A DNA stretch of 34,536 nt from a phage, in NCBI GenBank assembly GCA_012145005.1, contig GCA_012145005.1_3029.2, one strand, 5' to 3'. Both the position numbers and the translations under genes were made by a program. The notes under the pieces are model-generated. The model searched no databases and was not told where the DNA came from. It worked only from the letters and a program-made list of their open reading frames with translations. This document shows positions 5,001 to 27,718 of this stretch, piece by piece (within the stretch, counting starts at the first letter, position 1; each line of letters begins with the position of its first letter).

Positions 5001-5882
5001 TTTTATTCTCAGCGCAATAAAGCCGGAAATATAACATTTAATATCAACGGTACAGTAACACCGATAAATGTTAATGCTTCAGGAACATTGAATGCAAATG
5101 GCGTAGCAACATTTGGTAATTCAGTCACTGCAACTGGTGAAATTATTTCTCGAAGCGCAAATGCTTTCCGTGCTATTAACGGAAATTACGGTTTCATTGT
5201 TCGCAATGATGGATCAGTAACGAATTTTATGCTTACTGCATCGGGTGATCAGACTGGTGGATTTAATGGATTACGTCCATTGTCCATTAATAATCAATCT
5301 GGGCAGGTCACAATTGGTGAAAGCTTGATCATTGCTAAAGGTGCTACTATAAATTCAGGTGGTTTAACTGTTAACTCGAGAATTCGTTCTCAGGGCACTA
5401 AAACATCTGATTTATACACCCGCGCTCCAACATCTGATACTGTAGGATTCTGGTCAATTGATATTAACGATTCAGCTACTTATAACCAGTTCCCAGGTTA
5501 TTTTAAAATGGTTGAAAAAACTAATGAAGTGACTGGTCTTCCATATTTAGAACGTGGCGAAGAAGTTAAATCTCCTGGTACACTGACTCAGTTTGGTAAC
5601 ACACTTGATTCGCTTTACCAAGATTGGATTACTTATCCAACAACGCCAGAAGCGCGTACCACTCGCTGGACACGTACATGGCAGAAAACCAAAAATTCTT
5701 GGTCAAGTTTTGTTCAGGTATTTGATGGAGGTAACCCTCCTCAACCGTCTGATATCGGTGCTTTACCATCTGATAATGCTACAATGGGTAATCTTACTAT
5801 TCGTGATTTCTTACGAATTGGTAATGTTCGCATTATTCCTGACCCAGTGAATAAAACTGTTAAATTTGAATGGGTTGAATAA
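2013..5882 (+). CDS. 34: long tail fibre proximal subunit gp34 (1289 aa)
   Basis: ATG with AGGAG SD; N-terminus MAEIKRKFRAEDGLDAGGDKIINVALADR; about 40-aa fibre repeats; TATAAATA late promoter upstream. Confidence 0.95.
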   Translation: MAEIKRKFRAEDGLDAGGDKIINVALADRAVGTDGVNVDYLIQENTVQQYDPTRGYLKDFVIIYDNRFWAAINDIPKPAGAFNSVRWRALRTDANWTTVSSGPYQLKSGESISVNTAAGNDITFTLPTSPIDGDTIVLQDIGGKPGVNQVLIVAPVQSIVNFRGEQVRSVLMTHPKSQIVLIFSNRLWQMYVADYSREAVVVTPASLYQAQSNDFIVRRFTSASAINIKLPRFANHGDIINFVDLDKLNPLYHTIVTTYDETTSVQEVGTHSIEGRTSIDGFLMFDDNEKLWRLFDGDSKARLRIITTNSNIRPNEEVMVFGANNGTTQTIELQLPTDISIGDTVKISMNYMRKGQTVKIKAAGEDKIASSVQLLQFPKRSEYPPETKWVTVQELVFNGETNYVPVLQLAYIEDSDGKYWVVQQNVPTVERVDSLNNSTRARLGVIALATQAQANADLENSPQKELAITPETLANRTATETRRGIARIATTAQVNQDTTFSFADDLIITPKKLNERTATETRRGVAEIATQQETNAGTDDTTIITPKKLQARQGSESLSGIVTFVSTAGATPASSRELNGTNVYNKNTNNLVVSPKALDQYKATPTQQGAVILAVESEVIAGQSQEGWANAVVTPETLHKKTSTDERIGLIEIATQSEVNTGTDYTRAVTPKTLNDRRATESLSGIAEIATQVEFDAGVDDTRISTPLKIKTRFNSTDRTSVVALSGLVESGTLWDHYTLNILEANETQRGTLRVATQVEAAAGKLDNVLITPKKLLGTKSTEAQEGVIKVATQTETVAGTSANTAVSPKNLKWIVQSEPTWAATTAVRGFVKTSSGSITFVGNDTAGSTQDLELYEKNSYAVSPYELNRVLANYLPLKAKAADSNLLDGLDSSQFIRRDIAQTVNGSLTLTQQTNLSAPLVSSSTATFGGSVSANSTLTISNTGTATRLIFEKGPQTGTNPTQTMTVRVWGNQFSGELDTTRSTVFEVSDETSSHFYSQRNKAGNITFNINGTVTPINVNASGTLNANGVATFGNSVTATGEIISRSANAFRAINGNYGFIVRNDGSVTNFMLTASGDQTGGFNGLRPLSINNQSGQVTIGESLIIAKGATINSGGLTVNSRIRSQGTKTSDLYTRAPTSDTVGFWSIDINDSATYNQFPGYFKMVEKTNEVTGLPYLERGEEVKSPGTLTQFGNTLDSLYQDWITYPTTPEARTTRWTRTWQKTKNSWSSFVQVFDGGNPPQPSDIGALPSDNATMGNLTIRDFLRIGNVRIIPDPVNKTVKFEWVE
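3441..3580 (+). repeat. in-frame direct repeats within gene 34
   Basis: ACTGCTACAGAAACTCGTAG occurs at 3441 and 3561, 120 nt apart, matching the 40-aa fibre repeat. Confidence 0.7.
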
Positions 5883-23602: not shown

Positions 23603-23632
23603 ATTATACCACATCCTTGTGGTAAAGTAAAC
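23603..23632 (-). promoter_or_regulatory. early promoter for rIIA.1-position ORF and rIIA
   Basis: GTTTAC overlapping the gene 39 stop, 18-bp spacer, TGGTATAAT. Confidence 0.6.
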
Positions 23633-25449
23633 TACTGGCTCATCCATTCTTTACGAAGGTCAGCATTATCTCCCATGAGCATTTCAAAAAGCTCTTTCCA
23701 ATTCTCAGGAAGTTTAACAACATCATATACTGGATTTTGAATCATCTCACGATATTCAGATTTTTCCAAAGAGCCAAGTCCTTTAATATAACGGATGCTA
23801 TGTTTAGGTAGAGCATCTTTGGCACTCTCATATTCAGCGACTGTATAAAACCATTCTTGTTTTTTACCGACCTGAGCGATGATTACAGGAGTTTTGACAA
23901 AGCGAATTCGTCCTTGCTCAAACAGTTCTGGCCAATTACTAAAAAATCCGAGCAGAGAAGGATAAATGCTTCCTAGACCATCATGGTCAGCATCAGTCAT
24001 AATAGCAATATTATGATAATTCAAGTTTTCGGCTTTTTCACCAAGAACTAATCCAGTGATTGCGCAAATATCAAACAGTTCTTTGTTTTTAAGCATATCA
24101 GCATATGACATACCCCAACTGTTGAGAACTTTACCACGCAATGGATAACCACCGTGAAGTTCTTTATCACGAACATCAATAAGATATCCGATAGCAGAAT
24201 CACCCTCAGTCAAGAAAAGAGTCGTGTCAGCATCTTTACCACAAAGATTCGCTTTAATGTGTTTATGAACCTTAGCTTTAGAAGCCTTTTTAGCTGCTTT
24301 AGTTTCTGCTGCTTTTTCTGCCGCCAATTTACGAGCCAAGGCAGCTTCAATAATTGGCATTAAAATTGCTTCATTGTTTAAAATGGCGCGCGAAATCTTT
24401 TTAGCATCAAGCTGAATATGACTACGAATTTCACCAAATGGAGAAGTCAAACGCTCTTTAGTTTGAGAATCAAATCGCATGTTTTTCATATCACGAACAA
24501 ACATGACGATAGTCAAACATTCTTTAACACGTGCTTTAGTTACATCAATTTTGAACTTACGTTTGATTTGTGGAATAAGGTCTTCACAAATATCATCCAT
24601 AACACAGTCAATGTGATGACCACCATTCTTAGTATGAATGTTATTAACGTATGTTAATTGACGAAAACCATCCGGTGAACGACCAACCGCAATAGAACAA
24701 TTTTCTTGTTCTTGAACAATAGCATGCTCATCATATTGGCGTGCATATTTCTTAAAATTACCCTGAACCTTTTTACCATTAAAGGTAAATTGAATATCAG
24801 GATAAACTACTGCAAGTGTCTGGAGACGATCCAGTGTAATGTCAAGATAAACCTGAGACAGCTCATTAGTTTCAAATGACATAAAATCAGGAATGAAAGT
24901 AACACGAGTTCCTTTCCATTTTCCAGGAATATCTTCCCATGATTTATTTTCCATGCCATTTGAACAACGAACTACAATATTATTTTGACCATCGCCAGTT
25001 TCACCAACAAACATTACAGAAAAAATGTTAGTTAAACTAGAACCAACACCGTTCATACCACCAGTGACGCGTTCTTTATCATCACCGAAGTTACCACCTG
25101 CTTTTGGAATAGTCCAGGCAGCAACAGGACCAGGAATTTCTTCGCCGGTAGGTGTTTTAACCATCGCTTGTGGAATACCGCGACCGTTATCTTCAACTGT
25201 TACTTGATTGTTTTTGATAGTAACATTAATTTTATTCGCGAATTTAAACTTAGTACGAATACCTTCATCTACTGAGTTATCGATAATTTCATCAATAAGC
25301 TTAACAAGACCAGGTACATACTGAACACTTTCCCATTTACCAAACAGAAAGCGCTCATGCATTTCATTAGCAGAAGAGCCAATATACATGCCGCTACGCT
25401 TTTTGATATGTTCAATATCGCTCAGAATTTTAATTTCATTCTTAATCAT
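23632..25449 (-). CDS. 39: DNA topoisomerase II large subunit gp39, uninterrupted form (605 aa)
   Basis: Track start is GTG at 25452; ATG at 25449 follows GAGGA; MIKNEIKILSDIEHIKKRSGMYIGS; GyrB-like ATPase and Toprim (EGDSA) in one reading frame. Confidence 0.9.
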   Translation of the reverse strand: MIKNEIKILSDIEHIKKRSGMYIGSSANEMHERFLFGKWESVQYVPGLVKLIDEIIDNSVDEGIRTKFKFANKINVTIKNNQVTVEDNGRGIPQAMVKTPTGEEIPGPVAAWTIPKAGGNFGDDKERVTGGMNGVGSSLTNIFSVMFVGETGDGQNNIVVRCSNGMENKSWEDIPGKWKGTRVTFIPDFMSFETNELSQVYLDITLDRLQTLAVVYPDIQFTFNGKKVQGNFKKYARQYDEHAIVQEQENCSIAVGRSPDGFRQLTYVNNIHTKNGGHHIDCVMDDICEDLIPQIKRKFKIDVTKARVKECLTIVMFVRDMKNMRFDSQTKERLTSPFGEIRSHIQLDAKKISRAILNNEAILMPIIEAALARKLAAEKAAETKAAKKASKAKVHKHIKANLCGKDADTTLFLTEGDSAIGYLIDVRDKELHGGYPLRGKVLNSWGMSYADMLKNKELFDICAITGLVLGEKAENLNYHNIAIMTDADHDGLGSIYPSLLGFFSNWPELFEQGRIRFVKTPVIIAQVGKKQEWFYTVAEYESAKDALPKHSIRYIKGLGSLEKSEYREMIQNPVYDVVKLPENWKELFEMLMGDNADLRKEWMSQ

Positions 25450-25466
25450 CACTTATCCTCGTTTGG

Positions 25467-25496
25467 TTTCGGGAATATTATACTCCGGTAATCATA
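25467..25496 (-). promoter_or_regulatory. candidate promoter for gene 39
   Basis: Perfect TATAAT -10 but only a weak -35 (CTTTA). Confidence 0.4.
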
Positions 25497-25502
25497 AAGC
25501 TA

Positions 25503-25518
25503 AAGGCCCGAAGGCCTT
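25503..25518 (-). other. UUCG-tetraloop hairpin after the lipoprotein ORF
   Basis: AAGGCC-UUCG-GGCCUU directly after the stop at 25519; moderately U-rich downstream. Confidence 0.45.
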
Positions 25519-25779
25519 TTATTTAAAACGGATAGTCGAATCCTTGAAGAATAGACCAGAACATACGGTTCCTTCTACTTTCTGCCCGGTAGGTCCAATA
25601 GCACGAAATCCAGTATGTTGGAAATCATTTTCAGAGCAACCGAACCAATTGTATCCAGTGATTTCAATATTAGTAAACCCACTTGAAGACAAAACTTTGG
25701 TTGCATTATCAGCATCAGTACATCCTACTAAAGACACTGCTAATACTAATGCCGCGATAGAACGATTAACATATTTCAT
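25519..25779 (-). CDS. predicted lipoprotein (86 aa precursor)
   Basis: Track start is TTG at 25791; ATG at 25779 gives MKYVNRSIAALVLAVSLVGC with lipobox LVGC; mature part has three more Cys. Confidence 0.5.
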   Translation of the reverse strand: MKYVNRSIAALVLAVSLVGCTDADNATKVLSSSGFTNIEITGYNWFGCSENDFQHTGFRAIGPTGQKVEGTVCSGLFFKDSTIRFK

Positions 25780-25783
25780 AATT

Positions 25784-26155
25784 TCACTCAAATTTAATGG
25801 CTTGAAGGAGACTAATAATTCTTAAACGGCTTCTTTCATCTTTAACTGTAAAAGAAAGAGGATCGCCAGATTTCATGGTGATAGTGCATTCAAAACCAAA
25901 ATCTTCAGGAACTTCTTCGAAGAAGTCAAATTCTTCATCATAAATTAAAACATTACTCTGAAAACTGTGAAGAATTTTTCCATCATTTCCAGATGCTGTA
26001 CTAATCATTGTAACATTATGACCTTTCATATCTTCAACGATAAATTCGCTTGTAGATATTACGGCATTAATAGAACCATTCCTATAAATAGAAGAAAGCA
26101 GATATTTCTTTTCTTCACCTTCACGAACACGATATTTCTTACCGATTTTAAACAT
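25784..26155 (-). CDS. hypothetical protein (123 aa)
   Basis: Track ORF starts at GTG 26161; first ATG at 26155. Confidence 0.55.
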   Translation of the reverse strand: MFKIGKKYRVREGEEKKYLLSSIYRNGSINAVISTSEFIVEDMKGHNVTMISTASGNDGKILHSFQSNVLIYDEEFDFFEEVPEDFGFECTITMKSGDPLSFTVKDERSRLRIISLLQAIKFE

Positions 26156-26157
26156 AA

Positions 26158-26334
26158 TCACCCTTTAAGTAAGTCGTAAAATCCACCATTCACATGCTTA
26201 GGAGCAGAAGGCCGACGAGTAGACAGACGATGACATTTAGGACAAACATCATTTTCTCGTTCAGAAATCTTTTTAATTTTTTCATATTCATGCCCGCAAT
26301 CTTCGGATTGGCATTTATAATCATACATTGGCAT
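26158..26334 (-). CDS. FmdB-like zinc-ribbon protein (58 aa), not in ORF track
   Basis: AAGGAA SD; MPMYDYKCQSEDCGHEYEKIKKISERENDVCPKCHRLSTRRPSAPKHVNGGFYDLLKG with two Cys pairs. Confidence 0.5.
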   Translation of the reverse strand: MPMYDYKCQSEDCGHEYEKIKKISERENDVCPKCHRLSTRRPSAPKHVNGGFYDLLKG

Positions 26335-26336
26335 AA

Positions 26337-26756
26337 TTATTCCTTAAAGTGTGCTTTCAACATCTGATACAAGGACCATGCCTGTTCATTATTTTCAATA
26401 GTAACTTTCATGATAGGAAATTCTGTGAAATCTTCTATTTGTTCTTGCTCTTCCTGCTCTTGCTCTTCAGCTGCCTGATATGGATTTTCCACTTCATCAA
26501 AGAACCCAGCTTCACTTTTTGAAAGCCAAATAAAGTCTTCATCCAAAACATCTTTATCAGGAGATAGTACTAAATTTCCAGTAGATGACAAAATTTTAAT
26601 AGGACGCCCAAGAGCGTCCACATCTAAAATTTTAAAAGGATACATACCTAAACGGCGCGCATAGATTCCGTTATTAATATGGTCTTTAATAAAATTTTCT
26701 TGAGCTTGTTTATTTTTAAATTGATACCATTTATTAACTTCAAATTTAATAGCCAT
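26337..26756 (-). CDS. hypothetical protein (139 aa) with acidic EQ-rich segment
   Basis: ATG at 26756; segment [20 protein letters not shown]. Confidence 0.6.
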
Positions 26757-26971
26757 TAATAAATTTCCTTCCAGTAAGTTGTACCGTCTTCAGTGATTTC
26801 ACGGAATACACCATAAATCGGTTGTTTATCACCAACCTTTTCATACACATAAACAGAAGTCAAGTGAGTAAACTTAACGGTATGTTCCTTTTGAACTACT
26901 ACCAAATCTGGATCGAATAATACATCTTCAAATTCGTCATTAGTGCAGTTCTGAACAGTTTTACGTTTCAT
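26756..26971 (-). CDS. hypothetical protein (71 aa)
   Basis: ATG at 26971; promoter-like repeat element upstream. Confidence 0.6.
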
Positions 26972-27688: not shown

Positions 27689-27718
27689 ATTATACTCTGG
27701 TCCCAAGAGTTTGTAAAC
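27689..27718 (-). promoter_or_regulatory. early promoter for ORF 27147..27644
   Basis: GTTTAC, 18-bp spacer, perfect TATAAT. Confidence 0.65.

Follow-up and report, generated by a model that had tools for sequence, protein, structure and literature searches.

The open reading frame at positions 26158..26334 on the minus strand of the window, the 34,536 nucleotide stretch of phage DNA analysed here (assembly GCA_012145005.1, contig GCA_012145005.1_3029.2), is by sequence identity and gene order gene 39.2, a known and named gene of the T4 family with a published function. Its product is most probably a GroEL-modulating early protein, as judged from its orthologues in T4 and RB69, named NwgI, and is built from a zinc ribbon and a flexible tail rather than being a transcription factor; a probability of approximately 0.8 is assigned to this reading. 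The window protein shares 91% identity with gp39.2 of RB69 (59 aa) and 81% with gp39.2 of resequenced T4 (58 aa), so that transfer of function from these proteins is well founded. Many T4-like coliphages and Shigella phages match the 1.6 kb surrounding the ORF at 95-99% identity, by which similarity the window is a segment of a Tequatrovirus.

A preliminary description of this DNA had presented the ORF as an unannotated 58 aa member of the FmdB family of putative regulators. The frame and its coordinates were exactly as described. The description of the gene as unannotated does not hold, as 39.2 is already named in hundreds of T4-like phage records; it is annotated under that name in PP01, AR1 and T4, the full label in PP01 being '39.2: FmdB-like transcriptional regulator', and elsewhere appears as 'zinc ribbon domain-containing protein', 'gp39.2' or 'hypothetical protein'. 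The term regulator is an inherited family name, whereas the orthologues that have been studied, those of T4 and RB69, act on GroEL/GroES. The analysis therefore amounts to a correction of annotation, since hundreds of records carry either 'FmdB-like transcriptional regulator' or 'hypothetical protein' for a gene that genetics shows to encode a GroEL modulator. The gene itself being known, the new element is a reading of the entire family as chaperone accessories with the tail as a ligand of GroEL.

Zinc ribbon and C-terminal tail

The translation of gene 39.2 is MPMYDYKCQSEDCGHEYEKIKKISERENDVCPKCHRLSTRRPSAPKHVNGGFYDLLKG. It matched Pfam PF09723 (Zn_ribbon_8) at 45.7 bits (gathering score 34.4, E 6.7e-12) and NCBIfam TIGR02605 (FmdB family zinc ribbon protein) at 44.9 bits (cut-off 31.3), in both cases over residues 1-41, and PHROG 1076 with an E value of 7e-12. 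By these matches the small product belongs to the FmdB / Zn_ribbon_8 zinc-ribbon family, in agreement with the preliminary description, which had recognised the family from the N-terminus and a second pair of cysteines and had proposed an HMM search as a check. The N-terminus, MPMYDYKC, fits the family pattern M-P-x-Y-x-[YF]-x-C. The putative zinc ligands, all on the minus strand, are C8 (26313..26311), C13 (26298..26296), C31 (26244..26242) and C34 (26235..26233). The first pair, C8 and C13, has the spacing Cx4C and is followed after 17 residues by the second, C31-x2-C34. Binding of zinc through C8/C13 and C31/C34 is presumed, in keeping with the predicted fold.

The window protein resembles the families described by PF09723 and TIGR02605 in its MPxYxYxC N-terminus, its two pairs of cysteines and a [KN]GxG[FWY][YF] motif located after the ribbon. 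It differs from them in the first knuckle, which is Cx4C where the family has Cx2C, and in lacking a Ser/Gly-rich low-complexity C-terminus, since it ends five residues past the aromatic motif. Among orthologues of gp39.2 (loci L005, L008 and L034-L041) the first knuckle is variable at its second ligand position, with Cx4C, Cx2C, CxC and CxxH arrangements all represented, and the Krischvirus-type protein apparently has a Cys3-His site.

Modelling with AlphaFold2 from an alignment of 30 sequences gave a mean pLDDT of 76.5, with strands at residues 3-8, 16-20, 28-30 and 37-40 modelled at approximately 85. Residues 1-41 (26212..26334, minus strand), the same span that is covered by PF09723 and TIGR02605, are accordingly predicted to adopt the fold of a four-stranded zinc ribbon. 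From residue 42 onwards the pLDDT lies between 54 and 61, and the C-terminal tail (residues 42-58; 26161..26211, minus strand) is predicted to be flexible. Searching the PDB with the window sequence returned no close solved homologue (best E 0.78), and a Foldseek search of the model against the PDB gave a best E of 0.43, the top-ranked structures being generic zinc ribbons of MCM, RpoP, RbpA and ribosomal proteins.

The tail carries the motif P45-x4-G50-G51-[FY]52-Y53-D54. In a set of 21 distinct orthologues M1, P2, Y4, Y6, C8, R26, C31, C34, P45, G51 and Y53 do not vary, and three of these residues fall within the tail. The family alignment was built from an exhaustive HMMER search, which yielded 155 matches as opposed to the seven close relatives recovered by a word-indexed search, and in it P-x4-GG[FY]YD aligns with KGSGFY or KGSGWY of bacterial family members. 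Over 30 diverse members of the family, sequences of the bacterial KGSGFY type included, G51 shows the same invariance as is seen for the cysteines. This invariance argues that the tail is a conserved functional element and not a linker.

Probable modulation of GroEL and kinship with Ruc

Gene 39.2 was reportedly first selected from RB69 in the work of Ang and Georgopoulos, in which the homologues of T4, RB43 and RB49 are said to have behaved alike. That gp39.2 (NwgI) of T4 and RB69 modulates GroEL/GroES is stated, with reference to Ang & Georgopoulos (Genetics 190:989, 2012), in two later papers (PMC5153855, PMC4396842). According to these papers, T4 deleted for 39.2 does not grow on some groEL mutant hosts, and Mattenberger et al. 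(PMC4396842) describe the deletion as viable on many K-12 strains. The phenotype of the deletion is thus conditional.

The window protein shares with gp39.2 of T4 and RB69 its orthology, its position between goF and gene 39, the zinc ribbon and the GGFYDLLKG tail. It differs by few substitutions. By this resemblance it would act on GroEL as the T4 and RB69 proteins do. Made early, gp39.2 would pre-condition GroEL for the gp31-dependent folding of late proteins by shifting it to an open state that accepts a co-chaperonin, whether host GroES or phage gp31. Such a shift would aid GroEL-dependent folding, in particular that of the major capsid protein, and would let the phage grow where the host GroEL is suboptimal. 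The element in contact with GroEL may be the conserved GG[FY]YD tail. The mobile loop of GroES has the sequence GGIVL, to which the gp39.2 tail bears a similarity; we know of no structure of a gp39.2-GroEL complex. A GroES-like gene was sought in the vicinity of 39.2 in 30 T4-like loci and none was found, as would be expected given that gp31 lies elsewhere.

The only other characterised member of the family is Ruc (Rv0991c) of M. tuberculosis, a zinc-binding, redox-activated chaperone that is co-regulated with hsp60/hsp70 and was presented as founding a 'novel protein family' (PMC7448276); phages and phage homologues are unmentioned in that paper. The N-terminal domain of Ruc, reconstructed from primer sequences for cloning and mutagenesis given in PMC7448276, scored 49.4 bits against PF09723, which places Ruc and gp39.2 in one Pfam family. 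In both proteins the two pairs of cysteines are separated by a 17-residue spacer (for Ruc, Fig. 2 legend of PMC7448276), and both combine a zinc ribbon and an unstructured C-terminus, that of gp39.2 being predicted, with a tie to Hsp60/Hsp70 systems. Pairwise identity between Ruc and the window protein is 24% over 34 residues. The C-terminal half of Ruc is entirely disordered and is needed for holdase activity (PMC7448276), whereas the window protein has a tail of 17 residues, modelled at pLDDT 54-61, with a conserved aromatic motif. Ruc works on unfolded clients together with DnaKJE after oxidation, whereas gp39.2 reportedly works on GroEL itself.

The kinship with Ruc raises an alternative in which gp39.2 would be a redox-activated holdase of the same kind, its cysteines releasing zinc under oxidative stress and the unfolded protein then handing non-native clients to DnaK or GroEL. 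The Pfam domain common to the two proteins, the identical spacing of their cysteine pairs (PMC7448276) and the predicted disorder of the 39.2 C-terminus are all consistent with such an activity, as are the range of tail lengths among homologues of Ruc, 7-61 residues, and the finding that in some phyla ruc is linked to genes for GroES/GroEL (PMC7448276). A tail of just 17 residues bearing a conserved aromatic motif differs, however, from a long hydrophilic low-complexity sequence, and the CxxH arrangement of RB49-type orthologues retains the capacity to bind zinc but speaks against a strict thiol switch. The genetics of gp39.2, as reported in PMC5153855 and PMC4396842, are moreover specific to GroEL/GroES. 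A holdase of the Ruc type is therefore considered improbable, and GroEL modulation is preferred.

Members of PF09723 were also found beside a chaperonin gene in jumbo phages. In Klebsiella phage fENko-Kae01 (ENKO_297/298) and Yersinia phage fHe-Yen9-04 (g260/g261) a PF09723 gene lies directly upstream of a Cpn10/GroES gene, with scores of 39.3 bits for the zinc ribbon against PF09723 and 66.6 bits for Cpn10. The pair was present in six further IMG/VR loci, eight in total, down to 55% identity. The phages that carry it are Eneladusvirus-like jumbo phages of approximately 355-370 kb, and the eight loci are L010 (1501-1994), L013 (1501-2017) and L044-L049; in fENko-Kae01 the zinc-ribbon and GroES genes overlap. 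The jumbo-phage zinc ribbons resemble the window protein in starting with MPLYTYKC, in belonging to PF09723 and in their tie to a chaperonin, in this case by adjacency of the genes. They differ in length (67-69 aa) and in having a tail of the FKGNWF type as opposed to the GGFYD of gp39.2, and their identity to the window protein, approximately 50%, extends over the first 35 residues only.

Kinship with Ruc and the pairing with GroES in jumbo phages suggest a role in protein folding and point away from transcription, although they do not prove a mechanism. Taken together with the action of gp39.2 on GroEL, they suggest that PF09723, a very large family of bacteria and phages, is mislabelled and serves protein folding. 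A more ambitious extension, which is put forward tentatively and is much more likely to fail than to hold, is that the 'FmdB' family consists of accessories to chaperone networks, that the P-x4-G-G-[FY]-Y-D tail of gp39.2 docks into the groove of the GroEL apical domain in the manner of the GroES mobile loop, thereby biasing GroEL to a state that accepts a co-chaperonin, and that the jumbo-phage pairs represent the same two-part system.

The same evidence bears on a widely copied label of the gene, that of a small transcriptional regulator. The family name, as used in PHROGs and in RefSeq annotation ('FmdB-like transcriptional regulator'), is the sole support for this function. The whole protein is accounted for by a zinc ribbon and a 17-residue tail, with no recognisable DNA-binding domain, the literature searched yielded no experimental report of regulation by any member of the family, and both characterised members, gp39.2 and Ruc, work in protein folding. 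Regulation of transcription is thus very unlikely to be the function of gp39.2.

Conservation of the gene and its surroundings

A tblastn search of 50,697 phage records recovered the 39.2 frame in 886, of which 852 had at least 80% query coverage; a protein at least 99% identical to that of the window was present in 216 phage records, and homologues retaining the frame reached down to approximately 36-37% identity. Conservation of the frame in related phages, on which the preliminary description had made its proposal depend, is thus extensive. Comparison of the window gene with its orthologues from other Tevenvirinae (T4, RB69, Bp7 and fPS-90) by the Nei-Gojobori method gave dN/dS ratios of 0.04-0.16 at dS values of 0.5-2.6. 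Gene 39.2 is accordingly genuine, and purifying selection on it is strong.

Gene 39.2 is found just upstream of gene 39 in RB69 (Mosigvirus), RB49 (Krischvirus), RB43 (Pseudotevenvirus), TG1 (Tegunavirus) and Bp7 (Dhakavirus). Gene 39 follows 39.2 within approximately 0.1-3 kb in 28 of 30 IMG/VR loci, which were retrieved with the clade alignment and comprise T4-like contigs only. The genes in between and around are less constant: goF, the 123 aa ORF that follows 39.2 in the window, and 39.1 have been gained, lost or are far more diverged than 39.2 among relatives, as illustrated by one locus (L020) in which 39.2 is 84% identical and goF 36%. T4 lacks the 123 aa ORF that the window phage and PP01 carry between 39.2 and 39.1. 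This ORF occurs in PP01 and many relatives, and distant versions with 38-40% identity are present in Mosigvirus-like contigs.

The persistence of gene 39 after 39.2 in Tequatrovirus and the five genera named above, while goF, the 123 aa ORF and 39.1 come and go, could be taken to mean that gp39.2 assists the phage type II topoisomerase as an accessory factor. In this family, however, gene order is widely conserved, and outside the Straboviridae the homologue adjoins pyrophosphatase/ligase genes (CB7) or GroES (jumbo phages) instead. As the published phenotype is furthermore related to the chaperonin, a role with the topoisomerase carries very little weight beside GroEL modulation. That the ORF arose by chance with a fortuitous pattern of cysteines, as might be supposed of 58 codons in AT-rich DNA with many spurious ORFs, is practically dismissed by HMM scores above curated cut-offs, a frame conserved across 886 records to as little as 36% identity, dN/dS far below 1 and the genetic tests of the T4 orthologue reported in PMC5153855 and PMC4396842.

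The T4 reference differs from other T4 sequences at this position. In the T4 RefSeq entry (NC_000866/AF158101) the annotated proteins are 45 aa (39.2) and 65 aa (39.1) long. When positions 5398-5839 of the NC_000866 locus (L002) were compared with 139-578 of the MT984581 locus (L003), a 341 bp stretch was approximately 4% different and had two extra bases; the difference was seen relative to the resequenced genomes HM137666, KJ477684-6, MT984581, OL964735 and others. In MT984581, the only resequenced T4 genome that was translated, 39.2 is 58 aa and 39.1 is 86 aa with a lipobox. From these comparisons the old T4 entry (M89919, 1992) looks to be erroneous or to derive from a variant stock. Two further records, LR746311 (vB_SsoM_113) and PP987310 (Manna), match 39.2 in two pieces and have annotated proteins of only 47 aa, which reflects either assembly frameshifts or real pseudogenes.

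Local layout and probable early transcription

On the minus strand the gene order is cef, goF, 39.2, the 123 aa ORF, 39.1, a hairpin and gene 39. Gene 39.2 comprises 58 codons and a stop, from ATG at 26334..26332 to TGA at 26160..26158. An in-frame TAA four codons 5' of the ATG leaves 26334 as the sole possible start. The good Shine-Dalgarno sequence noted in the preliminary description was located by reading the sequence as AAGGA at 26341..26345 (minus strand), 6 nt before the ATG and within the last codons of goF. The stop codon of goF (26339..26337) is separated from the 39.2 ATG by 2 nt, and a gap of the same length separates the 39.2 stop from the start codon of the 123 aa ORF (ATG, 26155), ahead of which stands AAAGGG. 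This tight packing of goF, 39.2 and the 123 aa ORF fits translational coupling, and together with the gene order bears out the placing of 39.2 in an early cluster upstream of gene 39. Two overlapping frames, a 44 aa ORF on the same strand (26190..26324) and a 57 aa ORF on the plus strand (26194..26367), were rejected as fortuitous consequences of AT-rich sequence; it is the 39.2 frame that shows the HMM matches and the low dN/dS.

Upstream of 39.2 lie cef (26756..26971, minus strand), which was identified by PF24050 (T4_Cef), and goF (26337..26756, minus strand; 139 aa), which was assigned from the annotation of PP01. Downstream, the 123 aa ORF (25784..26155, minus strand) had no match in Pfam. 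It is followed by 39.1 (25519..25779, minus strand), whose N-terminus in the window, MKYVNRSIAALVLAVSLVGC, resembles the lipobox-bearing signal peptide of a lipoprotein and is missing from the T4 RefSeq version. Gene 39 (23632..25452, minus strand), encoding the large subunit of topoisomerase II, begins after the hairpin. In the window it is a single ORF of 606 codons (605 aa if translation starts at the second codon, an ATG), like its counterparts in RB69 and PP01, and is without the mobA/60.1 insertion that splits genes 39 and 60 in T4. No tRNAs were found in the window and Rfam returned no RNA family over its whole length, while a search for defence systems with PADLOC gave no meaningful match.

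The T4 39.2 transcript has been classed as early, and the protein was undetected in the time-resolved proteome of the same study (Class_P = NA; PMC9697503, Table S2). The small size of gp39.2 and a reference T4 sequence that differs from resequenced T4 may qualify this non-detection by mass spectrometry, and the divergent reference version of 39.2 may itself explain why the protein is absent from proteomics conducted against that reference.

A consensus scan of the window identified a sigma-70-like sequence, TTTACA-17-TATAAT (11 of 12 positions), at 27689..27717 on the minus strand, which could serve as the early promoter of the cluster formed by a motB-like gene, cef, goF and 39.2. It is only a candidate, because the total number of sites in the scan was no higher than in shuffled sequence. 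In Yersinia phage fPS-90 a predicted early promoter is annotated at the corresponding point in the gene order, upstream of the motB-like transcriptional-regulator gene g010c. Just after 39.1 the sequence AAGGCC-TTCG-GGCCTT, followed by a T-rich tail, would form a hairpin (25503..25518, minus strand), and in fPS-90 a terminator is annotated at the matching position. The early transcription unit of 39.2 probably terminates at this hairpin. Within 25477-25518 (minus strand) the hairpin is followed by AGCTTTA, which resembles a MotA box, and approximately 12 nt further on by TATAAT. This layout matches that of a terminator and the middle promoter of gene 39, both of which are annotated at the same place in fPS-90.
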